A DNA stretch of 43,036 bases from a virus (taxonomy: Duplodnaviria; Heunggongvirae; Uroviricota; Caudoviricetes): positions 1 through 43,036 of the IMG/VR virus record IMGVR_UViG_2671180804_000003. One strand, given 5' to 3'. A program made the position numbers and the translations under genes. Positions 1-41,768 of this stretch are shown piece after piece. The number at the start of each line of letters is the position of its first letter. The stretch's first letter is position 1. A model generated the notes under the pieces. It saw only the letters and a list, made by a program, of their open reading frames with translations, searched no databases and was not told the origin of the DNA.

Positions 1-333
1 GGTTTGGGAGAAGCGGCAAAACGGAATGTGGGAACAGGGGAAAATCAGATACCTGATATGTCAGCTTATTCATCAGGATCTGGCTGGCAAAAATTGCCTG
101 ATGGTTCAATTGAACAGTGGGGAAGAATTAATTTCCCGAATAACGCCGCGGCGGTATCTACAAATGTGACTTTCACCATTCCTTTTACGCAGGAGCCAGA
201 CGTAGTGATTGTATATGACGGCGGTTTTGGTGGTGGGAATATGTGGGGCGCAACTAACTGGACGAAAACAGGTTTCGTTGCTCATTGTAACTATGGATTT
301 GAAGGTGGAGCCTTCTACGCGAAAGGGCGTTAA
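1..333 (+). CDS. Tail fibre protein, C-terminal variable part (5' end outside window)
   Basis: ORF open at window start; Gly/aromatic-rich C-terminus typical of fibre tips; immediately followed by a tail fibre assembly gene. Confidence 0.55.
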   Translation, partial: GLGEAAKRNVGTGENQIPDMSAYSSGSGWQKLPDGSIEQWGRINFPNNAAAVSTNVTFTIPFTQEPDVVIVYDGGFGGGNMWGATNWTKTGFVAHCNYGFEGGAFYAKGR

Positions 334-335
334 TT

Positions 336-776
336 ATGAAATATTTGTATGTTGATAATCTGGCGTACCCTTATGCCCTCCAGTCTGTTTACGCTGCAAA
401 AGGCCAATGGCCCGAAGGTAAAGGCGTGGATATAGACGAAGCTATTTTCAGGGAATATTTCCATGATACGCCGCCTGACGGTAAGTACAGAATTACCGGA
501 GACGATGGAATGCCAGCATGGGCAGATGTTCCACCGCCAACACGTGAAGAACAAATTGCATCAGCCGAAACTAAAAAGCAGCAATTAATTAATCAGGCCA
601 ACGATTATATGAACAGTAGACAATGGGTTGGTAAAGCGGCTATTGGTCGTCTGAAAGGTGAGGAACTGGCGCAATATAATTTGTGGCTGGATTATCTGGA
701 CGCACTGGAGCTGGTCGATACTTCCAGTGCACCAGATATTGAATGGCCTACTCCTCCGGCAGTTCAGGCCAGATGA
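336..776 (+). CDS. Tail fibre assembly protein (Tfa)
   Basis: 146 aa; C-terminal LWLDYLDALELVDTS..WP motif characteristic of Tfa chaperones. Confidence 0.7.
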   Translation: MKYLYVDNLAYPYALQSVYAAKGQWPEGKGVDIDEAIFREYFHDTPPDGKYRITGDDGMPAWADVPPPTREEQIASAETKKQQLINQANDYMNSRQWVGKAAIGRLKGEELAQYNLWLDYLDALELVDTSSAPDIEWPTPPAVQAR

Positions 777-1350
777 CATCCGGCGCGGTGCTGGTATCTG
801 TTGCCGTCACCGCGTCAATGTAATCCAGCACAGCGTTAAGCCGGGTTGTTTCTGCCTGCGTCAGTTTCCGCCCGGCCTGTAATTTCAGTTGAATCAGACT
901 AATGGAAGCCATTGCAGTATCAATCAGTGACTGACGCTGTGCTTCTGCCGCGTCTACTGCGGCGCGATGCTGTGCCTCAGTATCTGTCACCCATTTCTCA
1001 CCATCCCATTTATCGTATGGCGTTAACGGGGCGATAGTGGTTGTATTTTCAGGGTAATCACCCGGAGCTGTGATTTCTTTGGCGTCTCCCGTTTCGGTGT
1101 TATAGACGATTTCACCGCGATGGTCTGACACATATTCCCATGATTTTAAATCCACAGAACGGCAAATTGTATAACCAGCTTTATGTGTAACTGGTGCATC
1201 TAAACAAGAACATGCCGGGATACCGACGCCAACCGCAAGATATTCAGTTGATGTGGAAATATATTCCCGCGTTTCGCCATCATAGTTATGTACGATGATT
1301 TCCCCATCATTTAAAGCGTAACCGTCTTTTCCCAAAATAGCCTGTTCCAT
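748..1350 (-). CDS. Tail fibre assembly protein (Tfa), second copy on opposite strand
   Basis: 200 aa; C-terminal LNAVLDYIDAVTATDTSTAPDVIWPELP motif; converges on and overlaps the plus-strand Tfa. Confidence 0.7.
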   Translation of the reverse strand: MEQAILGKDGYALNDGEIIVHNYDGETREYISTSTEYLAVGVGIPACSCLDAPVTHKAGYTICRSVDLKSWEYVSDHRGEIVYNTETGDAKEITAPGDYPENTTTIAPLTPYDKWDGEKWVTDTEAQHRAAVDAAEAQRQSLIDTAMASISLIQLKLQAGRKLTQAETTRLNAVLDYIDAVTATDTSTAPDVIWPELPEE

Positions 1351-1842
1351 TTATGCAGCCCTCACAATGTAGTTAAATGCAATGTTTCGCGGGCTACCAT
1401 CACCGGCGCCGGAACTGACATGATTTGTTCTATCCATTCGTTTACTGTCATTTGTTGTTCCACTCCCATCCTTCCACGAATACAATAACCCGCCATCGCC
1501 AATGCTCAACTGCACCGCAAATACGGATGAACTGGATGAATAAACATCTCTAGCCATGAGTGGGTTCCCTGTCCATCCATGCATTTCATGGTTATGTTCA
1601 AGGATAGATGCCGCCTGACTTGAAAGTAGCAGTCTCGCGGAATCAACACCTCGCCCATCATCCCACCCGCGAATAAACTCACCGCGCAAATCCGGTAATT
1701 TTAACTTTGGGTAAGCCTTTGCCAGTTTTGGGTACTCTTCGGCAGAAAAAGGTGCACCGTTGCATTTCAGCCAACCTGTTGGTGGTGTGGCTGAAGGCCA
1801 CGGAACAGGCACACCAACGGGTAACGCTGAGCCTTCTCCCAA
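1351..1842 (-). CDS. Tail fibre protein with phage tail-collar domain
   Basis: PVGVPVPWP...GWLKCNG...LPDLRGEFIRGWD...HNHEMH matches the tail-collar domain pattern; TTG start in this frame, with an ATG ORF in another frame upstream. Confidence 0.65.
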   Translation of the reverse strand: MGEGSALPVGVPVPWPSATPPTGWLKCNGAPFSAEEYPKLAKAYPKLKLPDLRGEFIRGWDDGRGVDSARLLLSSQAASILEHNHEMHGWTGNPLMARDVYSSSSSVFAVQLSIGDGGLLYSWKDGSGTTNDSKRMDRTNHVSSGAGDGSPRNIAFNYIVRAA

Positions 1843-1982
1843 ATCAATGCGGCAATACCACCAGCAACACTTCCATCAGTATATTTGCCATCCTGCGTTG
1901 CAGTGGCTTCGACTTGCCCGATTCGGAGCATAGTTAATCCTCACTTAGTGTTAAGCGATAAAATCAGAGGGGGAAATATCAG

Positions 1983-2576
1983 TTATGAATAATTGAAAAT
2001 GATGTTCAGATGGGATGGGGCAATTTTGTTGATTGAACACTCCAGTTGTTTATTGCCCCACGATGCGAGCGGATCTCCGCAGTAGGACGCGCCAGCAAGC
2101 GAATACTTGATCGTTGTTTGTGGCGCATTTATCCGCCAGGTAAATGGCCACTCGTCACCGTTAAGCGCATCACCGCATACTGACATGCCACTCATAGCGG
2201 GCCGGAACTGTGTGATAGTGATGGTATAACCAAGAGCTGCAGCCACCCGGATGTAATAATCGCGGTTCAGGCCGCCGGTGCTGATTAACTTTGCCACCAC
2301 GGCGCGCTGGCGATCGCTGACGCCACCGGATTCACCAATCGCACAATCATCTGGTAACCCCAGAGAGCTTTCCCATTCTGACAACATTACCGTCGCTGTA
2401 GGGGGAAAAGCACCAGTAATCAGGCTTTGCGCATCGTTGTCAGAACGCTGAAACGCGCTGCCCAGTGCCCGTAATACCGCAGCCTGTACCGTTCTTTGCG
2501 ACCGGGGCCACGCCCTGCCCGTCGGTAGCAGCGCACCAAGCGCACCGGCATAATCATTTTTTGAAAAGAGGCTCAT
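1983..2576 (-). CDS. YmfQ/DUF2313-like tail protein (Mu gp48-like)
   Basis: 197 aa; position between baseplate J-like gene and tail fibre; sequence family recalled from Mu-like and e14-like tail modules. Confidence 0.6.
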   Translation of the reverse strand: MSLFSKNDYAGALGALLPTGRAWPRSQRTVQAAVLRALGSAFQRSDNDAQSLITGAFPPTATVMLSEWESSLGLPDDCAIGESGGVSDRQRAVVAKLISTGGLNRDYYIRVAAALGYTITITQFRPAMSGMSVCGDALNGDEWPFTWRINAPQTTIKYSLAGASYCGDPLASWGNKQLECSINKIAPSHLNIIFNYS

Positions 2577-3715
2577 ACAAAATTCACCCCGCCAAGCACC
2601 GGAATTTCGCCAACAGCAAAGGTGATATTGGCCGTCGGAGAGTTAAGAATATAGCCCGTCGTGCCGCTAACACCGCCGATACTCCCGTTAATATCAGAGA
2701 GGTAAACTTTCCCGGAACCATCAGGGTTAGCTTCATCAAAAAACAGCGCCGTCAGCGCGTCTTTTATCCCCTGAACTGTGGTGCTGTCGGCATTTTTGAT
2801 CCCAGAGATTTCAATATTGATGACTTTCTTGATCGGGGAACATACGAAAACAATGGCAGTGTCTGTCTGCTGCGGATAGATGTGGTCGGCGACAGCGAGC
2901 TGGTCTCCGGTGGCTTTAACAGCCCCCCAGTCCTCAAGTTGGGATATTCCGTCGGTACCGACCGGAAACCCACCATTGTCATTCCGATCACACATGATAT
3001 ACACGCCAACGGTCCCGGCCCCGTTCAGACGCCGCTTTACCCACGCGCGGGTGACGCCCGAAACCTCAAGCGCCCATTTTTTATAATCGGCGTCGCTTCC
3101 ACCCTGAGGCGGATTCTGCCATGCCAGCAAGCCACGACTGCGAAAATCCTCTTCCGTTTCAATATCGGCTCCGCCGGTCGCAGCGGACAGTAACGTTACC
3201 TGTGGATCCACGCCAGCAATATTCGCGTCCAGGGTCATTATGGTCCCGGCATCAGCGTTACCGCGCGCGCCTCCACCCGTTACATCACTGGTAATATCCG
3301 GCAGTATGGCCGTCACCGCGACGATACCAAATCCATCTGCCTGAATTTTAAGATCTGCATCCGTCCGGTACTGGTATCCGTCCCCGCGGTTAATGATCGA
3401 GCCAACAGGGATAATACAGTCAACACTGCCACTAGCCTGTACCGCAGGCGACTTCGCCGCTGCAGCTGGTTTTCTGAATACCTGCTTAAGGGCCATCCAC
3501 CCGGCGAGATACTCATCGGTAGAGGTAAACGGGTTTGTCTGCAGGGCAATATAGTCAAGGTAGGCGTAATGCAGATGCCCCATCCCCGCATCCATGTCAG
3601 CCAGTACCTTCAGGTTCGCGAAGCGCAGGAGCGCACCAACATCCTCAAGCTCCGCCTGCATAAATTTCCGGTTTCCGTCGCGGAGTTCGCTCAGCGTCGG
3701 TCGTTTAAACGGCAT
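2573..3715 (-). CDS. Baseplate J-like protein (Mu gp47-like)
   Basis: About 380 aa from internal ATG (MPFKRPTLSEL); synteny in Mu-type baseplate cluster. Confidence 0.75.
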   Translation of the reverse strand: MPFKRPTLSELRDGNRKFMQAELEDVGALLRFANLKVLADMDAGMGHLHYAYLDYIALQTNPFTSTDEYLAGWMALKQVFRKPAAAAKSPAVQASGSVDCIIPVGSIINRGDGYQYRTDADLKIQADGFGIVAVTAILPDITSDVTGGGARGNADAGTIMTLDANIAGVDPQVTLLSAATGGADIETEEDFRSRGLLAWQNPPQGGSDADYKKWALEVSGVTRAWVKRRLNGAGTVGVYIMCDRNDNGGFPVGTDGISQLEDWGAVKATGDQLAVADHIYPQQTDTAIVFVCSPIKKVINIEISGIKNADSTTVQGIKDALTALFFDEANPDGSGKVYLSDINGSIGGVSGTTGYILNSPTANITFAVGEIPVLGGVNFV

Positions 3716-3716
3716 A

Positions 3717-4154
3717 TTAACGTTGCTCCCATATCCAGTAAAACCTGAATTCCTGCCAGTCCTTCCCCGGTGCCTGATAGCGGATAATGAGATTGAGCCG
3801 GTCAGGCAGGACGATCCTTGCAACAGGAATAACCTCGCTGACAACGCCATCAACCTTTAACCAGTTGAGCGCTTCACTCGAGTATTCCTCCGCTTTTTTT
3901 GCTACATCCGGGGTCAGTTTTTTCCGCCGTAGCAGCCACAGCCGGGATCCCAGTTGGGATTCCTCCCCGGAATCCCCCCACCAGCCGCGGCGATCGCTAT
4001 CCTCATAATCATCGTCAGCGCGCGCCAGCCTGTCGGTAAACAGGCTGTCCAGTATTGCAGTCTGTAAATCGTTCCCCGTGGTGAGTTCACCCAGCCCTTT
4101 CTGCCAGTCAGCAAACATCTCATCCACATTCCAGAATGAAGCGATGTCACTCAT
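3717..4154 (-). CDS. Baseplate protein, phage GP46 family
   Basis: 145 aa; synteny and GP46-like sequence. Confidence 0.65.
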   Translation of the reverse strand: MSDIASFWNVDEMFADWQKGLGELTTGNDLQTAILDSLFTDRLARADDDYEDSDRRGWWGDSGEESQLGSRLWLLRRKKLTPDVAKKAEEYSSEALNWLKVDGVVSEVIPVARIVLPDRLNLIIRYQAPGKDWQEFRFYWIWEQR

Positions 4155-4735
4155 GTCACCTGATCCTCTGTTTTTTGGCTGCGGATATTGTCATTGCCAC
4201 TCTGGGCATTTTTAACCACATGATCATGGTCATTATGTGCATCCCGCAGCTCTTTCAGTGTTCGGGTATTGGTTTCACAGTTATCAACAATGTCACCCGT
4301 GCACCTCAGGATCGGGGTATTTGCAAGGATCCCCTGGCTGGCATTGATGGTCACGTTAGTGGCGTTATTGACCTCAACATTCTGGCCCTTTGCATCCAGG
4401 AAGATCCCCTTCTCCGTCAGGAGAATATTAAGGCCCCACTGGTTATACATGACCGTTTCGCCCGCTTTCAGGCCTGTATGACGGAACCCCTGATGGTTGG
4501 ACGCAATTACCACCGCGCTGGAACGATCACCGCCAATAAAAGCCAGAACCACGTCAGTCCCTGACGGCAGGCCGGATGAAAAGCCAAATTCTGCCATCCG
4601 CGGAGCGCTGGCCACCTCCAGCGGAGTCTGGTACTGGATAGACTGCACCACCCCACCATCTTTCATAGCCGTGATCCGGCCAATCCCCAGCATGCCGGCG
4701 ATCCTGGTCGCTGCATGTTTAAATAGTTGCTTCAT
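4151..4735 (-). CDS. Baseplate assembly/spike protein (Mu gp45-like, gpV family)
   Basis: 194 aa; synteny between hub and GP46 genes. Confidence 0.65.
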   Translation of the reverse strand: MKQLFKHAATRIAGMLGIGRITAMKDGGVVQSIQYQTPLEVASAPRMAEFGFSSGLPSGTDVVLAFIGGDRSSAVVIASNHQGFRHTGLKAGETVMYNQWGLNILLTEKGIFLDAKGQNVEVNNATNVTINASQGILANTPILRCTGDIVDNCETNTRTLKELRDAHNDHDHVVKNAQSGNDNIRSQKTEDQVT

Positions 4736-5817
4736 GTATTGAATCCCGCCAGGTTCTGGTAGAAGGCATATGGCTGAACGGAGAATGCTTCAGGCGGCAT
4801 CAGCGTCATGCGTGCATGGGTGCCGTAGTCATCGCGCATATAGGTGACTTCTGCCAGTAGCAATTCAGTCTTCGGCAACCGTAAGGTGGGAAGATCAACG
4901 GGGATCAATGTGTTTGGTTCCCACAGTTTCCCGTCTTTATCCCGCCAGGAATCGATGGTTACCGAGAGCTGTTTTGAACGTCCGTACCGCCGGTTCATTT
5001 CCCAGTCGATCGCACTTTGTGCCTGTTGAGTAGCCATCAGGGTACTTTCCACAATCGATATATGTTTTCGGTACCGCATGCGGGCGGCCTCCGGATCTCT
5101 CGCCGTTGCCAGAGTCACAGCGTCATAGGCCGTATCAGGCGAATACCCTGCAATTGGAGAAACGCTCATTGATACACCGACATAATCTGAAAACCTGTCA
5201 GCCATCGATTTGCGGTAGTATGCCTGCTCGACATTTACCCCTTCGGCTATCCCACTTGCCGCACGACGTGTTCCCACCCGGGTCAGTAACAGGTTTCCAT
5301 CGGGCTGATCGTAGTAAAGCAGAGCAGACCATCTGGCCACCCGATCGATGACTTCTTGCGGAGACTCACCCCAGTTCAGAGTGAACTGGGGTACCTTCAC
5401 AAGTTCATCAACATCCGTGGTTACGGTGATGCCGTAGTAGGATGCCAGGCGAGAAGCAATTTCAAGCGCATTACTGGCATTGATGACGTTGTTAGGCCAC
5501 TCGGCTGAGCAATCCACCAGGTCCTGACATTTGCTCCTGCCCGTGGCGCGGACCTCATGGCGGGAGCGCGATAGTGCGGGTTCCCAGTCATCAACATATC
5601 CCGTCAGTGTCAGATCATCTCCGATACGAACTTCACAAGACATTCCCTCTTCAACGAGTTGACGATCTTCGTTGCCAGGGAAGTAATCCATTAGCCCAAG
5701 ATCGAAATCAGAGGGAAAACGCTCAATACCCCGCGTTACCCGGACAGAATCCCACCCCTCGATGATTTTGCCGTCGACCGTCAAAGAAACAACATCCAGA
5801 TCGCTGTCTGCATTCAT
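4732..5817 (-). CDS. Baseplate hub / tail protein (Mu gp44-like, late control D family)
   Basis: 361 aa; synteny downstream of DNA circularisation protein. Confidence 0.65.
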   Translation of the reverse strand: MNADSDLDVVSLTVDGKIIEGWDSVRVTRGIERFPSDFDLGLMDYFPGNEDRQLVEEGMSCEVRIGDDLTLTGYVDDWEPALSRSRHEVRATGRSKCQDLVDCSAEWPNNVINASNALEIASRLASYYGITVTTDVDELVKVPQFTLNWGESPQEVIDRVARWSALLYYDQPDGNLLLTRVGTRRAASGIAEGVNVEQAYYRKSMADRFSDYVGVSMSVSPIAGYSPDTAYDAVTLATARDPEAARMRYRKHISIVESTLMATQQAQSAIDWEMNRRYGRSKQLSVTIDSWRDKDGKLWEPNTLIPVDLPTLRLPKTELLLAEVTYMRDDYGTHARMTLMPPEAFSVQPYAFYQNLAGFNT

Positions 5818-7220
5818 TGCCTCAGTACCTTCATGGTTGTCGGCATAAACGCCGGATGCGGTACGCGCGCTTCCTGTACCAGTTCATCTGCACGGGTGGC
5901 ATCCTGGTATAATCGGTTTGCCAGCGTCAGCGCCGGAAGCGGCTGAGCGGTAGTAACCTGCAGAAGCTCGCTCAGACCAGAAGCACGCTCACTCATCGTA
6001 GAAAGGAATGCCGATCTGACGGCGAGAAGCGCGTTATACATATCATCGTCTGCGCGGTCTCCAGCCAGAACCAGCGCCGTATCAAGTTGCACAGAAACTC
6101 GTTGAGTTAACTCTTCTGCCTCGTCTGTACTGGCTGGTCTGGAGTCCGCAGCGGCACTGGTCATGGCACCAGTACATAGCACAACAATCAGCGTGTTCAT
6201 GGTCGCCGAAATCGCTTTGCTGCTGTCGGACTGCTGGTACTCCGTGCTGATTGAATTAGCCAGTTTTTCCAGCGCTGTGATTCGGTCATTAACGCTGCCG
6301 GCGCTGTTAAGAATTGCGTTTACCACGTCGGCGACGCCCTGGACAAACTCATCAGGTGTGTTGGAGCTGCTAAGCTGGCTCGACCTGTCGGTAACATTTT
6401 TCCGGTCCATTACCGACTGGGCTGTTACCTTGTCAGCCAGTGCTCTCTCATCATCCACATCAGCAACTGACGATTTGCCAGCAACAGCAGAGGAACTACC
6501 GCCCACAGAGCCTTTACTGTAACGTCCGTACCGGGTATTCCCGAACGTGGAGTTCAGGACATTGCTGAGATTCGTGACCTGACTGATGGTGCTGTCAACC
6601 ATGTTAGTCCAGAACGTGACCGTGCCTCTGATGGTGTTTATAGCCTGTGTGACACCGCGGATTTCACTCTTAACTCTGGCAATCGTGCTCAGCACAGCAG
6701 TGCTGACCAGTTTCAGATAGTTGGTTTTCACCGTGGCGCCTGCAACGGTACTGCCCGTGACAGCAAACACTTTAAGCCCTGATTCAATTGCCATCAGGGT
6801 AAATTCAAATACTCGCCCGTTCTCCATCGAACCGGAAATACGCAAACCATTCTCAGGGATGGAAACCGTTAATTCGCCCAGTGTCGGATGGACAAGCGTA
6901 CCGCTACCTTTTTGTTCACAGGCTTCAATCAGTGACTGGCGCTGCGTGATAGCATCGCCGCCGCCGTAAACCTGGCTGTTCTGGATCAAGAAACCGCGAA
7001 TAACAAATCGCCGTGTTGCCCGCCCGATATCCTCTATCCAGGCTGTATCACGGTAGGGATATTCATGTACCGCCTGGCGTCGGCCGTGGCTCCCTTCCTC
7101 AGCAACAATTGCAAATGGCACACCTCTGAATGAGCTGGGCCGTAACTGCCCCTGCCAGTCATCGCTGGTATCTCCCCCCAAAAGAGAAGTTATTGCGTCC
7201 TGGATAATTGACGGCATCAC
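5814..7220 (-). CDS. DNA circularisation protein N-terminal family tail protein (Mu gp43-like)
   Basis: 468 aa; follows tape measure gene; GTG-ATG start preceded by GGAGG. Confidence 0.65.
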   Translation of the reverse strand: MMPSIIQDAITSLLGGDTSDDWQGQLRPSSFRGVPFAIVAEEGSHGRRQAVHEYPYRDTAWIEDIGRATRRFVIRGFLIQNSQVYGGGDAITQRQSLIEACEQKGSGTLVHPTLGELTVSIPENGLRISGSMENGRVFEFTLMAIESGLKVFAVTGSTVAGATVKTNYLKLVSTAVLSTIARVKSEIRGVTQAINTIRGTVTFWTNMVDSTISQVTNLSNVLNSTFGNTRYGRYSKGSVGGSSSAVAGKSSVADVDDERALADKVTAQSVMDRKNVTDRSSQLSSSNTPDEFVQGVADVVNAILNSAGSVNDRITALEKLANSISTEYQQSDSSKAISATMNTLIVVLCTGAMTSAAADSRPASTDEAEELTQRVSVQLDTALVLAGDRADDDMYNALLAVRSAFLSTMSERASGLSELLQVTTAQPLPALTLANRLYQDATRADELVQEARVPHPAFMPTTMKVLRQ

Positions 7221-7232
7221 GCCTCCGGAAAT

Positions 7233-7257
7233 AAAAAAACCGCCATGTCGGCGGTTT
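7233..7257 (-). terminator. Rho-independent terminator-like hairpin (CCGCC-loop-GGCGG plus T7 on minus strand)
   Basis: Forward AAAAAAACCGCCATGTCGGCGGTTT; on the minus strand the GC stem is followed by a T-run. Confidence 0.45.
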
Positions 7258-7560
7258 ACATATGCACTGAAATGACTTATCTATTTATCGCTGGATCCAT
7301 TACGGTCAAGAGATTCGGCGATCCTGTAAAGATGCTCAGTCGCCTTGAATGAGTTCATTAGGAACTCATAAAGCACACGTAAAAGCAATGCACTTACCAC
7401 CGATATCGTAATCGCCGTGAAATTCATTGAGACAACAGAAAAAACGAGGAAAATGCCAATTACCAGGTAAACAAGCGCAAAAACCTTTGGAGTCTAAATG
7501 GCTTTTGCTCCAAAAACTTTTTCATTCATAACTTCTTCCTTAACGAAATGACGACAGTGA

Positions 7561-9489
7561 TCAGTAATTCATGGCCGTTGTTATTCTGCCATTATTTTCC
7601 GCATTATAGGTTTTTCGCTCACCCTTATCATTAACCATTGTGATTTCGAGCTTAAGTGGTTGTTCTGACATTGCCTCTTTAAGAGACTTAGCCAGATTGT
7701 CGCCGAGTACACTTTCATCACTTTTCTTACCCGTATCACTCAGAATGATGGATTCCCGATTTCTGTTCTGCGAGCCTGAGAGAATATCAGTTTCATCACT
7801 CGGGTTACTAAGAGTGCTGGAGTCACGATTTCCAGTTTGCGAACCTGAGATAATGTCATACCGCTGCTGGGCCAGCACATCCGGATTTCTCTTCCCTGAC
7901 CACCGATCATCAGTAATGGCGGTCTGGATGGCGTTTAGCAGTTGTTCCTCAGTATAAGGTTGTGCGCCATTCTCATGTTTAATCATGGCTGCCATTATCG
8001 TTTTTAATGTTTCCGGATCGTGCAGATTTACTTGCTCTTTGGCTCCATATCCAGTGGCTTTTGAGACGGAGTCAATATATGCACGAGTATTATTCTCTGA
8101 TTGCGGAGCATAGGTATGAATAATCCCATCCAGAGTATTATTCCCCCTGTCACCATACAACATCAGCTGTCTCGCCATTGCAGTTCTTCCGTCGGCATCA
8201 TTCGCAAAGGTAGAAAATCCGCCATTTTTACCCGTTGCGTTTGCTGCAACTCTCAAATTACCGGGATTATTATTTCTGAAGCCAATTGCGTTATTCCTTG
8301 TTTCCCCGTAAGGAACATTGCCGCGTGCAACGTTGGATTGTGGCTGGCTGATAGCGGATAAGTCATTCTGCAATTGAATCGCAGAATCGGTCGCGCGGTA
8401 ATTCGCATCGTACCGCTTTCTTACAGCATCAGTCATGAAACCCGAGTCAACCTGCCCACGTTCACTGCGGGGTAAGCTGTTATAAAGTTCCTTATCGTTC
8501 TGAATGCGCCGTAGTTTCTCAGCATCATTGCTGTTGATAAAACCGAGAGCATGAGACAGCCCAGTAAAATCACCATTAGTGAACAGATCGGTAACACCTT
8601 CAAGGCCGTCTTTGACTGAACCATCCGAAAGAATGGTCTTAAGTGCCTTGTTTTTTGAACGTTGCCACAGACCATCCCAGGATGCGCTGAGCTCATTCAT
8701 AGTGCCGTTCACTTCACTCAATTGCTGATTTAGTGCCGGATCCACAGTCAGACCAAATTCATCCGATTTCGCCAGCAGCTTTTTCATGCGCTCACCGTCA
8801 CGCATTAGCGCCAGCAATTCGGGCGTCAGCCCAAGTGCATCAGCGGCGGACTTCTGCTGTTCAGGTCGCAAGGTTGGAAAAATTTTTGCGATAGACTCCA
8901 GTGTTTTAAGGGTATTTACTGAACCATCGCTGTTTTTTTGGATTTGAGCACCAATTTGCGCCATCGCTGCCATAACCCCCTCGTTTTTACCACTGGCAGC
9001 CTCATTGAATGCTTTGAAAATACCTTCTATTGATGCATTAGCGCTCTCGCTGTCTGCCCCAAGAATACGCATTGCCCCGGAAAGTCGGGTAAAATCGTCA
9101 ACGCGCATTCCCGCATTTTTTGCCGAGACATCAAGATTATAGGCCTGACGGGATGCCTCCCGAAATCCATAAGCGACCTGTTTCAGTCCGTAGCCGGCAG
9201 CACCGGCTAACCCCAGCGCCCCCATCTTCCCCGTGAGCTCCCCCACCATTTTCAGAGGGGGAACCATGTCGCCAATAAACTGCACGTTATCCCGCGCGCT
9301 CTTCGACATATTCTCGAGGCGAGAAATAAAACCGCTCAGTCCGTCGGCTGTTTCCTGACCGCCTAACTTGAGCCCTTCTTTAGTTTTATCTAGCTTCGGC
9401 TCCAGGTCACGGACAGCCTCATTAATGCGGTCTATAGCCTCGCTAACCTGGTCGCTGGCCACCAGCTCAAAATCAAAAGAATTACTCAT
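7561..9489 (-). CDS. Tail tape measure protein
   Basis: 642 aa, helical/Ala-rich, directly downstream of the chaperone frameshift pair; tandem duplicated segment near C-terminus. Confidence 0.8.
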   Translation of the reverse strand: MSNSFDFELVASDQVSEAIDRINEAVRDLEPKLDKTKEGLKLGGQETADGLSGFISRLENMSKSARDNVQFIGDMVPPLKMVGELTGKMGALGLAGAAGYGLKQVAYGFREASRQAYNLDVSAKNAGMRVDDFTRLSGAMRILGADSESANASIEGIFKAFNEAASGKNEGVMAAMAQIGAQIQKNSDGSVNTLKTLESIAKIFPTLRPEQQKSAADALGLTPELLALMRDGERMKKLLAKSDEFGLTVDPALNQQLSEVNGTMNELSASWDGLWQRSKNKALKTILSDGSVKDGLEGVTDLFTNGDFTGLSHALGFINSNDAEKLRRIQNDKELYNSLPRSERGQVDSGFMTDAVRKRYDANYRATDSAIQLQNDLSAISQPQSNVARGNVPYGETRNNAIGFRNNNPGNLRVAANATGKNGGFSTFANDADGRTAMARQLMLYGDRGNNTLDGIIHTYAPQSENNTRAYIDSVSKATGYGAKEQVNLHDPETLKTIMAAMIKHENGAQPYTEEQLLNAIQTAITDDRWSGKRNPDVLAQQRYDIISGSQTGNRDSSTLSNPSDETDILSGSQNRNRESIILSDTGKKSDESVLGDNLAKSLKEAMSEQPLKLEITMVNDKGERKTYNAENNGRITTAMNY

Positions 9490-18188: not shown

Positions 18189-20318
18189 TTATTTCGGCAG
18201 GAGTTGCGATATTCGCTTACGTTTGACCGGCGCTGGTTCTTCAATAACCGCACCCGGCAGCTCGTAATTGATTTTTTCTTCCTGTCCAACTGGCGCTGGC
18301 AGGAACTTATCCGGATCGGCTTCGAGGTTGGCGGCCCGGACGTTGAGTTTTAACCCCATATGTTTGAGACCGCACAGCGCGGCATAGCTGTAAACGAGGC
18401 AGTCAAGCGCTTCGTTAGCTCGTCCTGGTATTGCTTCCCAGATACTGTACCGCTGCCCGGAAATGACTTTGTAAACCAGTCGCTCCGCCAGCAGCTGATT
18501 GAAGTACCCGAGATCGCGATCGTCAGGAAAATGCATATAACCCGCAGCGGCGGCGCCAGGTTTGGGTGGCTCAAGATGCAGGCGACCGCGTATCACGTCT
18601 TTCGCTGAGTTAACCCCCAGAATGACAGGGCGGAAACTGGCTTTGCTTTTCGATGATGGTCGTTTGGTCGGCCAGACAGGATTGCGTTTACCTCCCTGTG
18701 CAGACTCCCCCTTAATTGCCCAGACACGACGGCCAAGACGCTCTTTGGCGAATTCGTATACCTTCTGCGTATGGTGGCCACCGGAGTCCATGCACGTTGC
18801 CATGATATTCAGGCCGCGCCCGTCACCACGTCGCCAGATCTGTTTCAGGTATGCATCCAGTCGCTTCCAGGGTTCTTCCGTCTCAAGGTCACCATAAATA
18901 ACGTCATGCGCGACCGACCACGATTCTTCATCTCTCCCCCAGCCGGTGATCGTAATTTCGAAGCGATCGTCCTGGGTATCAACTCCAGCTGTTAACAATG
19001 CCACCCCGTCCGGAACGACGGCCGGAAATATTTCCCGGCGCGCCAGCAGAACATCAACAGGGAGCTGTTTCCCATGATTAGGTCGGTGCGGAAGCCCCAT
19101 CTGGGTATTCCACCACGCCTGTTCCTTATCCGGATCGCCCTTCGCATCGATATATTTTTTCGCAATATCCGACGGCTTATCTTTTTGCCAGGGGCTGAAA
19201 AGCTTGGATGCCTGGTACCCCGCGTGGTGGTTATCGACTGCCTCCTTTCCACAGGAGGGGCAGATTGCGCGATAGACCGCATGCCGTTCCGACTCTGACC
19301 ATTGCCAGACCTTTTCAACGCTGCCCTCGTCTGCCGCCCGCCAGGCAAGGTCATAATCCATCAGCGGTGAGTGCCGCTCCCCGCAGCACTCAAATGGGCG
19401 CGTCTGATGCCATCGAATAGTTTGCAGAGCTCTGAGGCGCTGTCCTTCGGACCAGCCACTACCACAGCATTCGCAATAGAGCATCGCCGATTTAGTCAGG
19501 TGTTTATCTCCCTCTTTCGGCCACTGAACGTGTTTGAAAAAGTCGGGGAACTGGCGGTGGCCACAGTGCGGGCAAACCACAGATGCCCGGCGCTGATCGG
19601 AGTCGGCGTAGCTGTCAGCAATGCGGCTCTCATCCTCCACCGTCGGCGAACAGGCGCGTACAGACAGCCAGGTCAGGCCAAATGTCGCTGTACGCTCTTC
19701 GGCCAGCGCAATTGGATCGCCTTCGCGGGTTATCGGGTACTTGTCCACTTCATCCGCCAGCAGGACACGAATCGGACGACGCGCAAGGTTATCAGGGCTA
19801 CCAGCACCCGCCAGCGCCAGAAATCCGCCAGTGAACGCCTTGTAAAGAATGGTTTCTTTCGAGCTTTTCTGTTTCGAATCACCGATGATTTTACGCAGTA
19901 CCGGCGTCACCCTTACCAGCGGGCTAATACGCTCTTTCGAAAACTGTTCAGCGGCTTCTTCTTTCGGCTGCAGCAGCAGTATCGGACAAGGATCGAGGTG
20001 GGCAAAATAGCCAAAAAGGTTTTCCAGCAGTGCTGTCTTCATCAACTGGGTACAGCACATTACAGTGATGATATGAACCCCGGACTCCGTCGCGGCAAGC
20101 ATCGGTCCGCGGGCAATTTCTACCGTCGATGTTTCCCAGTTTCCCGAAGTGCTCCCAGCCTCTTTTGCCAGCTTACGATAGTCATCTGCCCACTGCGGCA
20201 CACTGATACGCGGCGGGGGTGTCCAGCCTTTGCGGACGCTTAATTCAAGACGCTCAATCTTCTGCCGGGTTAAACTCTGGCTCTCCGAGGACTGAGATGT
20301 GTTTGTGGACATGTTCAA
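18189..20318 (-). CDS. Terminase large subunit (lambda gpA-like)
   Basis: 709 aa; ATPase and nuclease regions; follows Nu1-like gene. Confidence 0.9.
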   Translation of the reverse strand: MNMSTNTSQSSESQSLTRQKIERLELSVRKGWTPPPRISVPQWADDYRKLAKEAGSTSGNWETSTVEIARGPMLAATESGVHIITVMCCTQLMKTALLENLFGYFAHLDPCPILLLQPKEEAAEQFSKERISPLVRVTPVLRKIIGDSKQKSSKETILYKAFTGGFLALAGAGSPDNLARRPIRVLLADEVDKYPITREGDPIALAEERTATFGLTWLSVRACSPTVEDESRIADSYADSDQRRASVVCPHCGHRQFPDFFKHVQWPKEGDKHLTKSAMLYCECCGSGWSEGQRLRALQTIRWHQTRPFECCGERHSPLMDYDLAWRAADEGSVEKVWQWSESERHAVYRAICPSCGKEAVDNHHAGYQASKLFSPWQKDKPSDIAKKYIDAKGDPDKEQAWWNTQMGLPHRPNHGKQLPVDVLLARREIFPAVVPDGVALLTAGVDTQDDRFEITITGWGRDEESWSVAHDVIYGDLETEEPWKRLDAYLKQIWRRGDGRGLNIMATCMDSGGHHTQKVYEFAKERLGRRVWAIKGESAQGGKRNPVWPTKRPSSKSKASFRPVILGVNSAKDVIRGRLHLEPPKPGAAAAGYMHFPDDRDLGYFNQLLAERLVYKVISGQRYSIWEAIPGRANEALDCLVYSYAALCGLKHMGLKLNVRAANLEADPDKFLPAPVGQEEKINYELPGAVIEEPAPVKRKRISQLLPK

Positions 20319-23581: not shown

Positions 23582-24634
23582 TTATTCCCCTGTTAACGCC
23601 CTTATTTCCTCCACCGTCTGGCTAAACCTGTCCTCCTCGAGTTCAACGCCGATAGCCTGGCGGCCAAGTTCCAGCGCGATTTTCACGGTCGAACCGGACC
23701 CCATAAAGAAATCAGCCACCACATCACTAGGCTTACTGCTGGCGTTGATGATCTGCCGCAACATGTCAGCGGGTTTTTCGCATGGGTGTTTACCTGGGTA
23801 AAACTGAACGGGTTTATGTGTCCAGACGTCGGTATAAGGAACGGATACGGAAACAGAGAAATGCCGCCGAAGCGATTTGTACTCTTCGAGCAGCTCTGAA
23901 TACTTGCGATTTAACGAATGCCACATAGCCACCAGCTGGTGGTGTGGTGTTGCCAGTTCGCCGTTCTGGTGCTTTTCGATGGCTACCTGCGTGAAAAGGG
24001 ACTGAAGATTCCGGTAGTCTGATTCATTCGGTAATTGCCACTGGCTACCGCTGAACCAGTGAGACACCATGTTCTTCTTTCCAGTCGCATCGGCTATTTG
24101 TTTTGAGGTTATGCCAAGCGCTTCACGTGCATCCCGGAAATAAGAAATTAGGGGAGTCATTACATGCTGCTTCAGCTCGCTTCCCTTCTCCGCGTAACCG
24201 TCGCTCTTTGGTTTATACGGCCCCTGGTAATGCTCAGCGAAGAGGATGCGCTCTGTTGCAGGGAAGTAAGAGCGCAGACTCTCTTTATTACAGCCATTCC
24301 AGCGGCCCGACGGTTTAGCCCAGATGATGTGGTTCAGGACGTTGAACCGCTCACGCATCATGATCTCAATGTCTGCCGCCAGGCGGTGACCGGAGAAAAG
24401 ATAAAGACTGCCAGCAGGTTTAAGCACTCGCCAGAATTGTGCGAGGCACATATCAAGCCAGCGAAGATAATCCTCATCCCCTTTCCACTGATTGTCCCAG
24501 CCGTTGGGTTTCACTTTGAAGTACGGCGGATCCGTGACTATCAGGTCAATGGAGTTATCAGGGAGAGTGGCGATGTATTGCAGGCTATCAGCGTTGACTA
24601 ACTCAACACTGTTTATATTTACAGTATTTTTCAT
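23582..24634 (-). CDS. DNA methyltransferase, beta-class amino-MTase (N6-adenine or N4-cytosine)
   Basis: DPPY motif near N-terminus (LIVTDPPYF) and FxGxG (FFMGSGST) near C-terminus. Confidence 0.85.
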   Translation of the reverse strand: MKNTVNINSVELVNADSLQYIATLPDNSIDLIVTDPPYFKVKPNGWDNQWKGDEDYLRWLDMCLAQFWRVLKPAGSLYLFSGHRLAADIEIMMRERFNVLNHIIWAKPSGRWNGCNKESLRSYFPATERILFAEHYQGPYKPKSDGYAEKGSELKQHVMTPLISYFRDAREALGITSKQIADATGKKNMVSHWFSGSQWQLPNESDYRNLQSLFTQVAIEKHQNGELATPHHQLVAMWHSLNRKYSELLEEYKSLRRHFSVSVSVPYTDVWTHKPVQFYPGKHPCEKPADMLRQIINASSKPSDVVADFFMGSGSTVKIALELGRQAIGVELEEDRFSQTVEEIRALTGE

Positions 24635-28951: not shown

Positions 28952-30889
28952 TCAGGCGGCTGCACCCGCCTTTTGATTTGCACATAATTCAGGAAGATTT
29001 GCTTCTACCAGCGCACGAGCGAACGGCGGCGGTACTGCGTTACCACAGCGCGCTACCTGCTTGTCTTTGGCGTAACGATTGCCGCGATAGTCCTGATCGA
29101 TAACGTAGCCGTCAGGGAAGCCCTGCGCCTTATAAAGCTCATGCGGTTGCAGCATGCGCATTCCGATATCGACGATCTGGTACTTAACCCCCTCGATCGT
29201 CACCAGCCATTCATCCTCGCTATCACCGCAGTAGGTTTCGAGGAATGTCCGGACCTCGCCAACGTGCTGGCCACCAGCGGTAATCGTCGGCATAGGTGTA
29301 TCCATGGTCTGACCGTCGCGGCAGGTTCCGCGCAGCTTCACCAGGTGCGACGCAACTACCGCGTGGTGATCAACAGTAGTGACTGAGTGGGCAGGCTCAT
29401 CCATACCAACACCCGGCCCCGTGTAATTCCCACCATAGTGCTTCGCCAGGAACGCGCTCACCGTTGCAAACTTATTACCACCAGCAGTGACCGTGCCGAG
29501 CGGGTTATTCAGTTGAAGAACACGCGGTTCTTGCCCTGGGCGTTCGCCGTACCCCATCTGGATCAGTGTTGGAGTTACCAGCTGCGACTTACCGCCACCA
29601 CCTGCAGTAATCGTCGCACTCGGTTCGTCAGCCCTGTGCCCAACACTGGCTCCAAACTGGCGGGCGATGACCGGCGCAACCACGCACGCGCGGGACTGCT
29701 TGAGGATTGTATGAGCGGGTTTATCCAGCGGGCGCGGCTTTGCCTGGTACTCACTGCCGCCATTGCCAGCCAGGAACGGTGTCAGGGCGGCCTCAACTAC
29801 GCCAAGCGCATGCCCATTCCCGCCCGGGCGCGCCGACGTACCAGCGGTGACAGTTGGTACCGGCTCGGTCACTGGCTGCCCGGTGGCCCCGGTGCGGAAT
29901 TTAGTAAGATGCGGTACCGCCAGTGCGTAGCCATGCTTTTTAGTGATGGTCTGCAATGGCTCTAACAACGATTGCCCGCGGAAACAGTCATAACCTCCTT
30001 TCGTCGTGGTGTGGTTACACTTCACGATGAAAGGTGATGCGCTTTCGATAACAAAGCGCTGGATGCCGCGCGCGATACGTTTGAGCGTATTTTCCGCCAG
30101 CGGCTTTTTGCGGTCGAAGATGGACCGGGCCGGGATATTCCAGTCAATGCACTCCGCCGCGGTACGCCATGGCGCCAGCTTGCCGCTTTGTACTTCCAGT
30201 GATTTTGGATCCCCATGAGTCGCTTCAGGCCAATGAATCTTGCGGCCGTCACAGCGCATGACCATGAAGAAACGCTTTCTGATCGTCGGCGCGCCGTAGT
30301 CACATGCGCGCAGCTCCCGATAATCAACCTCATAACCAAGCCCGGCGATCAGCTGTTGCGCCTGCTGGCCGTGCGGCTCAATGGCAAGGAATTCACAAAC
30401 CTCAGCCAGCGCAGGGTGATTCGCCGCGATCCCCGTCGACAGCATGCCGACAAATGCCTCGAATGTTTCGCCAGCACGCTCAGGATCTGGGCGTAATTCT
30501 TCATCCAGCAGCGGGCCCCATGTCTTAAACTCTTCGACGTTCTCCAGCATCATGACGCGGGGACGTACTGCCAGCGCCCAGCGCAGGACAATCCACGCCA
30601 GCCCGCGAATCTCTTTCTTAACCGGCTTAGCGCCCTTCGCCTTGGAAAAGTGGCGGCAGTCAGGGCTAAACCAGGCCAGACCGACAGGTTTACCGCTGGT
30701 GGCTGCGCTTGGGTCAACGTCAAACACCGACTCGCAATAATGCAGCGTGTCAGGGTGATTCGTCTTATGCATCGCAATAGCGTTTTCGTCGTGGTTGATA
30801 GCGATATCCACGCTACGCCCGATCGCCAGTTCAATGCCGGTACTCGCGCCGCCGCCACCAGCAAAGTTATCAACGATAATTTCACGCAT
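28952..30889 (-). CDS. DNA (cytosine-5)-methyltransferase
   Basis: Motif I DNFAGGGG, PC motif FSPDCRHFS, ENV motif MLENVEEF; start at MREIIVDNF. Confidence 0.85.
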   Translation of the reverse strand: MREIIVDNFAGGGGASTGIELAIGRSVDIAINHDENAIAMHKTNHPDTLHYCESVFDVDPSAATSGKPVGLAWFSPDCRHFSKAKGAKPVKKEIRGLAWIVLRWALAVRPRVMMLENVEEFKTWGPLLDEELRPDPERAGETFEAFVGMLSTGIAANHPALAEVCEFLAIEPHGQQAQQLIAGLGYEVDYRELRACDYGAPTIRKRFFMVMRCDGRKIHWPEATHGDPKSLEVQSGKLAPWRTAAECIDWNIPARSIFDRKKPLAENTLKRIARGIQRFVIESASPFIVKCNHTTTKGGYDCFRGQSLLEPLQTITKKHGYALAVPHLTKFRTGATGQPVTEPVPTVTAGTSARPGGNGHALGVVEAALTPFLAGNGGSEYQAKPRPLDKPAHTILKQSRACVVAPVIARQFGASVGHRADEPSATITAGGGGKSQLVTPTLIQMGYGERPGQEPRVLQLNNPLGTVTAGGNKFATVSAFLAKHYGGNYTGPGVGMDEPAHSVTTVDHHAVVASHLVKLRGTCRDGQTMDTPMPTITAGGQHVGEVRTFLETYCGDSEDEWLVTIEGVKYQIVDIGMRMLQPHELYKAQGFPDGYVIDQDYRGNRYAKDKQVARCGNAVPPPFARALVEANLPELCANQKAGAAA

Positions 30890-32216
30890 TGACGGCCCCC
30901 TGCATGCTGTTGAAGAGACCACCAGCGGTCGTGATAATTTCACTCGTCGGCATACGTTCGAGCCACAGCTGGTTGATATTGGCTTTCAGCTTGTTCTGCT
31001 GCGAAACAGGTAGAGCGTCAGCCCCTTCAATCTGGTTAAACACCAGTCCAACCTCAAGAGGCCAAACGCGCGATTCGTTTAACGCCTTGTCCTTTGATTC
31101 CTGCGTCTCACGGACATGGGCGCGGATCCCCCGAATATTTGACCATTTGGCTTTATCCAGGCTTTCCATGGTCGCGATGAATTCACTGTGGTTAATGCCG
31201 TATTCTTTCGCAGACTCAACGGCAACCGTGCGTAACCGCTCTGACATGTCTTGTTTCACGTCATCGCTATCAAAGGGCAATGTTTCCAGCCATGCATTAA
31301 CACCCACCAGGATGCTCTCGCTGATCAGCTTTTTCGCTCTGTCGATCGTCAGCGGTGAAACATTGGTAAATTCAGGGTTTTCCAGAGAGTCGGCAGCCCA
31401 GGTATGACCAAACTTTGACTCGCTGAAGGTGTACTCGTCTTTCTTGCCGAACGCCGCGACAACACAGGCCCAAGCCTCTACACCGCTGGTTTCCAGAATG
31501 GCTTTTTGGGTTAATGGCAGTTCTGCCTCTGATTTCTCCGGCACTACCTCAGCGTCCAGCTCCGGCGCCGCATCAGTTTGCGTTCTTCCCACGGCAAATT
31601 GGGCCAGCGACATCGCAGCACGGCCTTTGGCCTCCAGGTCGGTGCGGTTGATGTAACTGAAACGCTCACCCCGCCATGTTTTGTCGAAGACCACGATAGC
31701 GCCAGCAAAAAATGCGCTGGTGGGCTGCTGCTTTTCGTCTTTCGGCACGAACCATGTAGGAAGATCGAAACCAATTCGGCCACGGATGAATGTGACGTGA
31801 TCTGCCTCTACCGGCCACCACGTTTCACTCGTCGCAGACTTAATGAGAAAAACGTACCGACCACCCTTTTCTCGCATGGCCATAGCGTGGTTAATGATGT
31901 GGGTCATTCCGGTAACGGCCTGCTTGTCGTGGTACTGAGAGCGGCTGTAAGGCGGGTTGCCAAACCCGGCACCACCGAGTTCTGCCAGCCGCTCTGACCA
32001 ATCCTGCGTCAGGGCATTATCTTCAGCCGTGTACCATGCTGGGCACTTCGCGTTGCTGTCGTCGGCAAAAAGGTCCAACACCAGAGGGCCGAACATCGCA
32101 TTGATCCCCCAAAACAACAGATCCGGAGTGCGCCATTGATCACCGACCTCTTTCAACTCGTGTGCTGGTTTTGAACGGAGTTCAGCCAGTGCACGGCAGT
32201 ATTTATTTTCCATCAT
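30882..32216 (-). CDS. Phage Dam-type N6-adenine methyltransferase with about 250-aa C-terminal extension of unknown function
   Basis: N-terminal W.TP..LF and GFGNPPYS motif typical of phage Dam family; C-terminal half unassigned. Confidence 0.65.
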   Translation of the reverse strand: MMENKYCRALAELRSKPAHELKEVGDQWRTPDLLFWGINAMFGPLVLDLFADDSNAKCPAWYTAEDNALTQDWSERLAELGGAGFGNPPYSRSQYHDKQAVTGMTHIINHAMAMREKGGRYVFLIKSATSETWWPVEADHVTFIRGRIGFDLPTWFVPKDEKQQPTSAFFAGAIVVFDKTWRGERFSYINRTDLEAKGRAAMSLAQFAVGRTQTDAAPELDAEVVPEKSEAELPLTQKAILETSGVEAWACVVAAFGKKDEYTFSESKFGHTWAADSLENPEFTNVSPLTIDRAKKLISESILVGVNAWLETLPFDSDDVKQDMSERLRTVAVESAKEYGINHSEFIATMESLDKAKWSNIRGIRAHVRETQESKDKALNESRVWPLEVGLVFNQIEGADALPVSQQNKLKANINQLWLERMPTSEIITTAGGLFNSMQGAVNA

Positions 32217-40374: not shown

Positions 40375-40584
40375 ATGGCAAAGCTAATGAAAGCGAGTCT
40401 CTGGAGTAAGCGCGAATTTACCAAAGACTCCATTCCTGACAACCGTACAATTAAACGTTGGGTCGAAAACGGATTACTCATGGGAAGGATTGTAGATGGT
40501 TCAGTTTTTGTCTATGAAACCGAAAAGTGGGGAGTTGACTCAATTGTTAATCAGGCGGTACGTCAGTTAATAATTGAGGGTTGA
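40375..40584 (+). CDS. xis: Excisionase (Xis)
   Basis: 69 aa; TIKRWVENGLLMGRIVDGSVFVYE resembles lambda Xis winged helix; GGAG before ATG; stop overlaps int start. Confidence 0.7.
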   Translation: MAKLMKASLWSKREFTKDSIPDNRTIKRWVENGLLMGRIVDGSVFVYETEKWGVDSIVNQAVRQLIIEG

Positions 40585-40586
40585 CC

Positions 40587-41768
40587 ATGGCAGCAAGGCC
40601 ACGAAAAAAAGAATACCGCCACCTTCCTGATTATCTTTTTTTTGATAAAGATCGTGGCGTGTATAAGTTCACGCTTATAACTGGGAAAAAGAAAACTCTC
40701 GGTTCGGATCGAGTAATGGCTATCGCCATCGCCCGAGAATATAACCTGAGGATGCGCCCTGAAAATACACCATCGATAGATTCATTAATTCGGGAATCGG
40801 GAGGGCTGAATGGTGAAGCCCACCCGTTTTCTGAACATGTTGATCGCATTATGGAGAGAGCGATCAAAGATGAGCAGCCGTCTAAAAGCACACTTGACGA
40901 TTGGAATAATGATGCCATCAGGGTTAAAGAATTTTTTAATAACATACCCGCATGCGATATTGAGCTTGAGCACGTAAATGCCTACATACGAAATTACCAT
41001 TCTGAATCGTCGGCCAATGTTCAGAACCGAAAAGTTAGCTTCCTGAAAAAGCTATTCTCTTATGCTGTTGATGAATCGCTAATGATGGATAACCCTGCAA
41101 CACGGAAAAAAATGCGGCGTGTCGATAAAAAGGTCCGCCGGCGACTCACTTTGGAACAGTTCTTGGCCATACATGCAGCTGCTGAACCTTGGCTGAAGAC
41201 TGCAATGGACCTTGCCATACAAACTACGCAAGCGCGCCTGGAAGTTTCCCGGATCCGGTACTCGATCAAGGAACCTCAAGAAGGGGTTTGCGGCTGTGTA
41301 TGGTTCGATCAGGAGGAGGCTGGCATATTCGGAACGCTTTACATTCACCGGCAAAAAGTGCAGCACAAAGAGGCTTCACACGTCGCTATTCCGATCGGCA
41401 GGGCCCTGAAAGAGATCATCGACAACAGCAGAGACAATGTGGCCAGTCCTTATGTTGTTCACCGGCTTCTGGAAAAGAGAAGCAATCCGATAAGTAAGGA
41501 AGTTAACCACCCAACACAGGTGGCCCCTGATTATTTGAGCAGGGCATTTTCAGAGCTGCGGGACCGGATAGGTGTAGCGGCAGAATTACCTATCAAAGAA
41601 AGGCCAACTTTCCACGAAATTAGAGCGCTGGCGGCTCATATTTTCGAAAGACAAGGTATCGATCCGCAGGCAAGGATGGCCCATAGTGATGCAAAATCGA
41701 CAAAAATTTATACCCAGAATCATGTTGAATGGGTTGAAGTACCACATGCAGAAATAAAAATGGCATAG
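40587..41768 (+). CDS. int: Tyrosine integrase, lambda Int family
   Basis: About 390 aa; N-terminal arm-binding-like region; C-terminal R...HxxR...Y region (HEIRALAAH, KIYTQNH). Confidence 0.9.
   Translation: MAARPRKKEYRHLPDYLFFDKDRGVYKFTLITGKKKTLGSDRVMAIAIAREYNLRMRPENTPSIDSLIRESGGLNGEAHPFSEHVDRIMERAIKDEQPSKSTLDDWNNDAIRVKEFFNNIPACDIELEHVNAYIRNYHSESSANVQNRKVSFLKKLFSYAVDESLMMDNPATRKKMRRVDKKVRRRLTLEQFLAIHAAAEPWLKTAMDLAIQTTQARLEVSRIRYSIKEPQEGVCGCVWFDQEEAGIFGTLYIHRQKVQHKEASHVAIPIGRALKEIIDNSRDNVASPYVVHRLLEKRSNPISKEVNHPTQVAPDYLSRAFSELRDRIGVAAELPIKERPTFHEIRALAAHIFERQGIDPQARMAHSDAKSTKIYTQNHVEWVEVPHAEIKMA

Follow-up and report, generated by a model that had tools for sequence, protein, structure and literature searches.

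A putative e14 P-type invertible tail-fibre segment in a prophage with a Mu-like baseplate, probably disabled by a 199-bp loss at one crossover site

The exchange of tail-fibre tips by DNA inversion is known from several phages. Phage Mu has a G segment of this kind (invertase Gin; S/U versus S'/U') and phage P1 a C segment (Cin). In both, the constant N-terminal portion of the fibre is encoded outside the segment, and two C-terminal parts with their chaperones are opposed within it; the 26-bp sites, with a 2-bp core, lie inside the coding sequence, and the gene of a serine invertase is adjacent. A further element of this class is a recombinational enhancer to which Fis binds, located as a rule within the 5' portion of the invertase gene. 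The segment measures about 3 kb in Mu and 4.2 kb in P1. The Hin/hix flagellar phase switch of Salmonella employs the same recombinase family and 12-2-12 sites, and it flips a promoter, not coding cassettes.

In Escherichia coli K-12, the P segment of the cryptic prophage e14 is bounded by TTGGTTTGGGAGAAGG and CCTTCTCCCAAACCAA and is inverted by PinE, PinQ and PinR (PMC12529663). In E. coli EC958, the prophages Phi1, Phi2 and Phi4 contain invertible segments of 2-3 kb with 26-bp sites, collar-domain tips and a minor fibre/chaperone gene (PMC4134206). One of the EC958 invertases is truncated, and inversion in trans was suggested; the 12-2-12 site architecture and the 26-bp consensus were tabulated in the same report (PMC4134206).

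This study concerns a window of 43,036 bp, namely the whole stretch of DNA analysed (IMG/VR record IMGVR_UViG_2671180804_000003), which lies at the very end of its source contig (GCA_001268765.1, CXYF01000006.1, 260,250 bp). The left end of the window very probably represents an invertible segment of the e14 P type (Gin/Cin/Pin/Hin) in a prophage with a Mu-like baseplate; this copy of the segment has probably become defective through a 199-bp loss, and its allele has been exchanged at the crossover cores. At about 41 kb, the host prophage looks complete and occupies the interval from tRNA-Pro/yejM to yejO; the same prophage was found in several E. coli, either at this place or adjoining yciI-tonB. 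It is not transposable: its integrase is of the tyrosine type, and its module for head and terminase is lambda-like. A megablast search of its backbone against INPHARED gave no match to a named phage. Positions 1-7220 form the distal end of the phage late operon on the minus strand (Table 1). The Mu gp48/YmfQ-like gene provides the context that fixes the direction of this operon.

Table 1. Features at the left end of the window, with positions counted from its first base.
Feature	Position	Strand	Profile match or remark
Left crossover site, inner half GGTTTGGGAGAA	1-12	+	core TT just outside the window; contig starts TTGGTTTGGGAGAAG
gp53-like fibre tip (C-terminal cassette)	1-333	+	Gp53-like_C, PF21882, 1.3e-08
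Tail-fibre assembly chaperone of the gp53-like tip, 146 aa	336-776	+	Caudo_TAP, 4e-32
TfaE-like tail-fibre assembly chaperone of the collar tip, 200 aa	748-1350	-	Caudo_TAP, 1.3e-32
Collar-type fibre tip, variable part now facing the constant part	1351-1847	-	PF07484 Phage Tail Collar, 4.6e-15
Frame-shifted ORF opened by ATG 1931, 54 aa	1767-1931	-	
Right crossover site remnant: inner half TTCTCCCAAATC (1834-1845) and core AA (1846-1847)	1834-1847	+	
Fibre constant N-terminal part, remnant (first 28 codons from ATG 1931)	1848-1931	-	
Mu gp48/YmfQ-family baseplate gene, directly upstream of the fibre gene	1983-2576	-	PF10076, 1.2e-32
Mu gp47/J-like	within 2573-3853	-	
Mu gp46-like	3717-4154	-	
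Mu gp45-like	4151-4735	-	
Mu gp44-like	4732-5817	-	
DNA-circulation protein	5814-7220	-	

The window contains two alternative C-terminal fibre parts on opposite strands, each with its own chaperone, which is a feature of the class. All open reading frames of the first-pass annotation exist where it had placed them, and profile matches agree with the families it had proposed; the converging and overlapping tfa genes that it described share 29 nt (748-776), just as tfaP and tfaE do in e14. The e14 P segment has the same order (ymfQ-stfP-tfaP-tfaE-stfE-pinE), convergent cassettes and a 29-nt tfa overlap. At the protein level, TfaE, StfE and YmfQ of e14 share 85%, 52% and 35% aa identity, respectively, with proteins of the window, and TfaP shares 73% aa identity with the 336-776 protein over the C-terminal half.

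Concerning the two tips, the gp53-like one has no start of its own and is silent, its expression being expected only after inversion; in the relative L003 it continues the constant part in frame, and in L012 it forms part of a 205-aa fusion. The collar tip corresponds in alignment to residues 97-259 of the L001 fibre, which is intact at 259 aa, and the TTG that appears to start its ORF (1351-1842) is the Leu codon of a conserved LGLGE motif. An ATG near 1931 had already been suspected to be the natural N-terminus, out of frame with the collar ORF. This ATG is indeed the true fibre start, as positions 1848-1990 are 100% identical to the intact fibre-gene starts of relatives, and it opens the frame-shifted ORF at 1767-1931.

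The pix-type half-site GGTTTGGGAGAAG occurs exactly twice in the 43 kb, in inverted orientation, at 1-13 (plus strand) and 1833-1845 (minus strand, one mismatch), where 0.05 copies are expected by chance and none of 100 shuffled sequences gave two matches. The e14 repeats TTGGTTTGGGAGAAGG and CCTTCTCCCAAACCAA were confirmed on NC_000913.3; they agree with the contig start in 15 of 16 bases (15/15 of those present, 13 of them inside the window) and with positions 1832-1847 in 15 of 16. The half-sites of the window also conform to the 26-bp consensus of PMC4134206. Together with a TfaE/StfE-like cassette and an upstream ymfQ-like gene, the pix repeat TTGGTTTGGGAGAAGG identifies the locus as a homologue of the e14 P segment. 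The inverted repeat sought over 1840-1940 by the first-pass annotation is in fact about 13-16 nt long and lies at 1832-1847. The second site, which had been expected to the left of the window, is divided by the window boundary: its inner half is present at 1-12, and its outer half lies beyond.

In relatives, the intact left site on the invertase side reads TTATCAAAAACG TT GGTTTGGGAGAA, and the intact right site inside the fibre gene reads CTCTCACAAACC TT GGTTTGGGAGAA. The sites fall in the codons for ..N-L/V-G-L-G-E.., and both tips thereby join the constant part in the same phase. Two complete inverted 26-bp sites (12-2-12) are found as pairs in the relatives, and the window retains the inner halves. 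The outer half of its right site is absent, with TGCGGCAATACC (1848-1859) standing in its place. On a weight matrix for half-sites, derived from 18 natural examples, the present right outer half, GGTATTGCCGCA, scored -25.4 bits; that of the intact L001 scored +13.7. In IMG/VR, 118 natural sites adjoin the same tip, of which 111 scored at least 8 bits and the lowest -2.6, and core-anchored broken sites as bad as that of the window were found at none of the 118. A G-to-A change in the inner half-site (T variant) was considered as a mutation specific to this junction and was rejected, as the same variant occurs in the intact sites of L008 and L009.

The source contig extends 2 nt further left than the window, and these two bases are the left site's core TT, with window position 1 being contig position 3. 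Nothing therefore lies left of the segment in this record, and both the outer half of the left site and an invertase gene are missing from the contig. A tblastn search with the L001 invertase detected no serine invertase in the 43-kb window (best E = 1.7). An ORF at the right end was examined as a candidate recombinase and proved to be an ImmA/IrrE peptidase. Circular permutation, with the invertase at the far right end, was likewise rejected, since that end carries the integrase and flanking genes as in the relative L010. In relatives, an invertase of 183-186 aa (Resolvase + HTH_7) lies 40-55 bp beyond the left site and is transcribed away from the segment; this was counted in every relative whose record or contig passes the left site (L001/L010, L003, L004, L011, L012). 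We infer that in the present genome the invertase sits just past the contig end. A neighbouring contig bearing it (186-aa resolvase/DinI/tRNA-Pro/yejM) would end in ...AAAACGTT; a homologue search with the invertase for such a contig of the source assembly returned only representatives of at most 98% identity.

Based on these features, window positions 1-1847 plus the two preceding contig bases very probably constitute an invertible segment of 1849 bp at the far end of the late operon. In the intact form, a constant part of 96 codons lies outside the segment, and the two 26-bp crossover sites fall within the ..N-L/V-G-L-G-E.. codons. The segment is turned round by the neighbouring 186-aa invertase, and the constant part is then joined in frame to either the collar or the gp53-like tip, each served by its own Tfa chaperone.

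The relatives provide examples of both states. L011 and L012 encode a protein identical to the 642-aa product of window positions 7561-9489; in L011 the collar tip is fused to the constant part, and in L012 the gp53-like tip is fused to it. When the 1849 bp of L011 were inverted in silico from core to core, the result equalled L012 with zero differences within the segment. L003 and L004 form a second pair of isomers, occupying one chromosomal site in opposite orientations. Intact relatives have in-frame fusions in both orientations, of 259 aa and 205 aa, and both orientations are thus represented at the level of the prophage family. These inversion isomers, together with the invertase in relatives, indicate that the prophage family has a working invertible system. 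The first-pass assignment to the Gin/Pin/Cin type agrees with the e14-like half-sites and gene order and with the invertase and both orientations in relatives.

Alignment with intact relatives revealed that the window is without 199 bp, the gap lying at the junction 1847/1848. One edge of the loss follows directly on codon 28 (GCA, 1848-1850), and the other lies precisely at the right site's core TT, where the junction reads GGTATTGCCGCA joined to TTGATTTGGGAGAAGG (..GCCGCA followed by TTGATTTGGGAGAAGG). The fibre gene of intact copies comprises 780 nt (259 aa), and 581 nt remain here from the ATG to the stop. Since 199 equals 66 x 3 + 1, the frame is shifted, and the 28 of 96 constant codons that are left are out of frame with both tips, so that this copy has no in-frame constant part.

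The missing 199 bp are present in all ten complete E. coli genomes spanning the junction (10/10). The constant region was detected in 33 of 5426 genomes, with a median of one place per genome, and continues uninterrupted into the 199 bp in the 32 complete E. coli genomes with at least 80% of the query; the 33rd genome has a match of 70% only and is outside the 32 counted. The exact junction had no match in IMG/VR or in the GTDB representative genomes, and an exact-protein look-up found the 54-aa junction ORF on only one contig of the whole collection, the source contig.

The frame break at the constant/variable junction would also suit a fibre that is out of frame merely in its present orientation, the segment then acting as an ON/OFF phase switch and not as a choice between two tips, and the first-pass annotation had allowed for a fibre out of frame in this orientation. 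This is highly improbable. At the site the two tips are in phase with each other, so inversion would leave the fusion out of frame too; when the remaining 28 codons plus TT were joined to window position 1 onward and translated, the flipped product was indeed still out of frame. Relatives are in frame both ways (259 aa and 205 aa), and this copy has lost two-thirds of the constant part along with the outer half-site. The break is the 199-bp loss in the constant part, and it is the same for the flipped tip.

The fibre gene is, as predicted from its reading frames, frame-shifted, leaving a 54-aa stub. We see hardly any chance that a functional short fibre is made from the unaltered collar ORF, whether translation were to start at TTG 1842 or ribosomes to shift frame out of the 54-aa ORF. 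An open frame of 163 codons with a complete collar domain speaks for such a product, but the TTG belongs to the conserved LGLGE motif, the 12 nt upstream of it hold no Shine-Dalgarno-like sequence, and inspection of the overlap revealed no X XXY YYZ slippery heptamer. In addition, the product would lack part (residues 29-96) or all (1-96) of the baseplate-proximal constant region, a region kept by every relative. As the outer half of the right site is gone, normal inversion should no longer be possible, and the switch should be defective or locked in this genome.

The segment itself differs from its surroundings. Against L011, positions 1848-19489 of the window have 1 mismatch in 17,642 bp (99.994% identity), whereas positions 1-1847 have 107 mismatches in 1,847 bp (94.2%), distributed along the full segment as far as either core. 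The switch in identity to the closest relatives falls at 1847/1848, exactly at the core. The nearest segment allele, with 29 differences, adjoins pinE in another prophage context (L002), and at least three further segment alleles occur among close relatives whose backbones are 99.8% identical or more. The segment allele is, by these alignments, foreign to an otherwise identical backbone and swapped exactly at the crossover cores.

Prophages of the e14 locus, P2-like prophages and other prophages with a Mu baseplate carry a Tfa protein identical to that encoded at 748-1350, on quite different constant parts. This identity across prophage families and the allele switch at the cores indicate that cassettes are exchanged between families at the crossover sites, in keeping with the reported action of several Pin enzymes in trans on a single segment (PMC12529663). 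Cassette exchange between prophages is an old idea, credited to Sandmeier (1994) as cited in PMC4134206.

The loss is known from a single draft assembly, and its boundaries resemble those of assembly nodes; together with the allele switch and the contig breaks in drafts of relatives, this means that a chimeric join must be considered. The 1849-bp segment may have been a separate node of the assembly graph that was misjoined, the real prophage retaining an intact fibre and switch; an inverting culture, or a second copy of the segment in another prophage, would supply the branch points at the cores. The contig begins at the core TT and the junction follows right after the core AA, which are both of the node boundaries expected from such an error, and the allele switch falls at this junction. 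Draft contigs of relatives often end at or near the crossover site, one chromosome record was linearised at such a site, and E. coli EC958, when assembled from PacBio reads, gave alternative contigs at segments of this kind (PMC4134206). The junction ORF, moreover, occurs in one assembly only.

Against such a misjoin, the window has zero Ns, and the junction offers no overlap or microhomology for a merger. From the workings of assemblers, a contig could be traced through a de Bruijn graph only if real k-mers bridged the junction. The missing 199 bp are single-copy and specific to the prophage family, as the genome counts given above demonstrate; nothing would therefore have prompted the assembler to break at codon 28 or to leave the 199 bp out, and the same counts dispose of the idea that the constant region or the 199 bp are a multi-copy repeat that confused the assembler. 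On balance, an artefact is unlikely, and we consider with good, though not full, confidence that the 199-bp loss is real.

As for the origin of a real loss, quasi-site recombination has been described for Cin in papers cited in PMC4134206. The far end of the loss ranked 822 of 875 positions on the matrix, with no better site within 15 nt on either side, and inspection of the alignment found no bases common to both ends, as a slipped-strand or microhomology deletion would leave. The lack of both site likeness and microhomology argues against quasi-site recombination and replication slippage. One end of the loss is, to the nucleotide, the cleavage point of the invertase, a coincidence that a random deletion end would reach in roughly 1 in a few hundred cases. 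From this coincidence we infer, with low confidence, that a recombinase had a part in the loss, for example through abortive cleavage followed by illegitimate joining.

A more specific proposal, that a Pin-family invertase reacted illegitimately and left the junction 1847/1848 as a scar, is speculative, and we think it improbable as a full account. The enzyme would have cut the core of the right site, and the end bearing the inner half-site would have been ligated to DNA 199 bp distant that is not a site; during that event the foreign cassette may also have come in, core to core, from a co-resident prophage. If this were true, the contig break at the left core would reflect continuing recombination at the surviving site, and the locus would be a natural record of serine invertases driving cassette exchange and occasionally ruining their own switch. 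A deletion truly initiated by the invertase would document a cost of carrying such recombinases.

The present findings are of use mainly for annotation and assembly practice. Fibre 'pseudogenes' in E. coli prophages, collar ORFs started at TTG, and contig ends are often by-products of Pin-type invertible segments and should be interpreted accordingly. The locus and its relatives also offer clean examples of a core-to-core swap of cassette alleles on an otherwise identical prophage backbone, of one cassette pair serving e14-like, P2-like and Mu-baseplate prophages, and of the decay of a switch through loss of one half-site.

Compared with the known systems, the segment is close in size to that of e14 (1849 bp here versus 1797 bp). 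The constant part and the gp53-like tip differ in allele from those of e14, and the segment resides in a prophage other than e14; in the window, the constant part is truncated and one outer half-site deleted, and the invertase is not on the contig. In comparison with Mu G and P1 C, the segment is short (about 1.85 kb), the constant part is very short (96 aa), and the phage is not transposable; the baseplate genes, being gp44-gp48-like, do resemble those of Mu. The EC958 segments differ from the one described here in that their constant parts are long and P2-like and contain Phage_fibre_2 repeats; no deleted crossover site was reported for any of them. This type of switch is already known, and our findings leave the understanding of how such switches work unchanged. 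Judged from its sequence, the element is best regarded as a switch of known type that has probably decayed or become locked; it is homologous to the e14 P segment and belongs in kind to the class of Mu G, P1 C and e14 P.

The quantitative comparison of the window with its closest relative, the near-identical prophage L011 of another E. coli, demonstrated that the tail-fibre segment and the backbone differ in their degree of identity. Window 1-1847 carries 107 mismatches in 1,847 bp (94.2% identity), and window 1848-19489 carries a single mismatch in 17,642 bp (99.994% identity), with the change-point in identity falling exactly at the crossover core. On the evidence of this sequence comparison, the invertible segment is an allele swapped into an otherwise identical prophage. 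Further segment alleles were also observed on other backbones that are near-identical to that of the window.

The 200-aa Tfa chaperone encoded at window 748-1350 was found as an identical protein in e14-locus, P2-like and other Mu-baseplate prophages (L139-L147), where it is accompanied by the collar/gp53-like cassette pair; in the P2-like prophages, the cassette is fused to a 514-aa H-like fibre. In the collection, 386 blocks index the identical protein.

The sequence GCTGAGCCTTCTCCCAAATCAA, comprising tip and half-site sequence, has a 22-nt exact match at positions 951-972 of IMGVR_UViG_3300001446_000005 (L007), in a context that is otherwise unrelated, with flanks that differ on either side.

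Several records begin or end at or near crossover sites. The source contig CXYF01000006.1 starts exactly at the left site, just left of window 1, its positions 1-2 being the core TT, and the draft contigs of relatives (L014-L018) stop at or soon past the right site. Further, the linearisation point of NZ_CM169492.1, a chromosome record designated as complete, is a crossover site of the same type. These contig and record ends suggest that the assembly graph branches here, owing either to inversion or to cassettes held in common.

Other features of the window were compared with L010, a relative located between tRNA-Pro/yejM and yejO (see the table).

Other features of the window
Feature	Position	Strand	Remark
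642-aa protein	7561-9489	minus	tape-measure position
ORF	23582-24634		corresponds to "DNA methyltransferase" of L010
Two ORFs, 134 and 258 aa	24844-26024	minus	between DNA methyltransferase and Q antiterminator genes
Two large neighbouring ORFs	28952-32216	minus	align with genes that the L010 annotation calls DNA cytosine methyltransferase and phage N-6-adenine methyltransferase
Integrase	40581-41768		
IrrE/ImmA-type metallopeptidase (Peptidase_M78) and XRE HTH genes	within 42147-43036	minus	beyond integrase

The protein at the tape-measure position, which had no Pfam match, is 23 aa longer than its 619-aa counterpart in L010, and the alignment has a gap inside its gene at window 7726-7841. 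The 134- and 258-aa ORFs gave no match with Pfam or PADLOC; at the corresponding slot, L010 carries different genes, namely a Clp-fold serine proteinase and a hypothetical protein, and by its gene content this slot looks like a variable cargo position. The methyltransferase names of the three ORFs are carried over from the L010 annotation; on these names, the prophage would possess three putative methyltransferase genes.

Concerning the right end, the metallopeptidase and XRE HTH genes, a pair also present in L010, show similarity in PADLOC to CapP/CapH, the paired regulators found in defence systems (1.1e-10 and 4.6e-10); the targets of such a CapP/CapH-like pair, if any, would sit outside the window.
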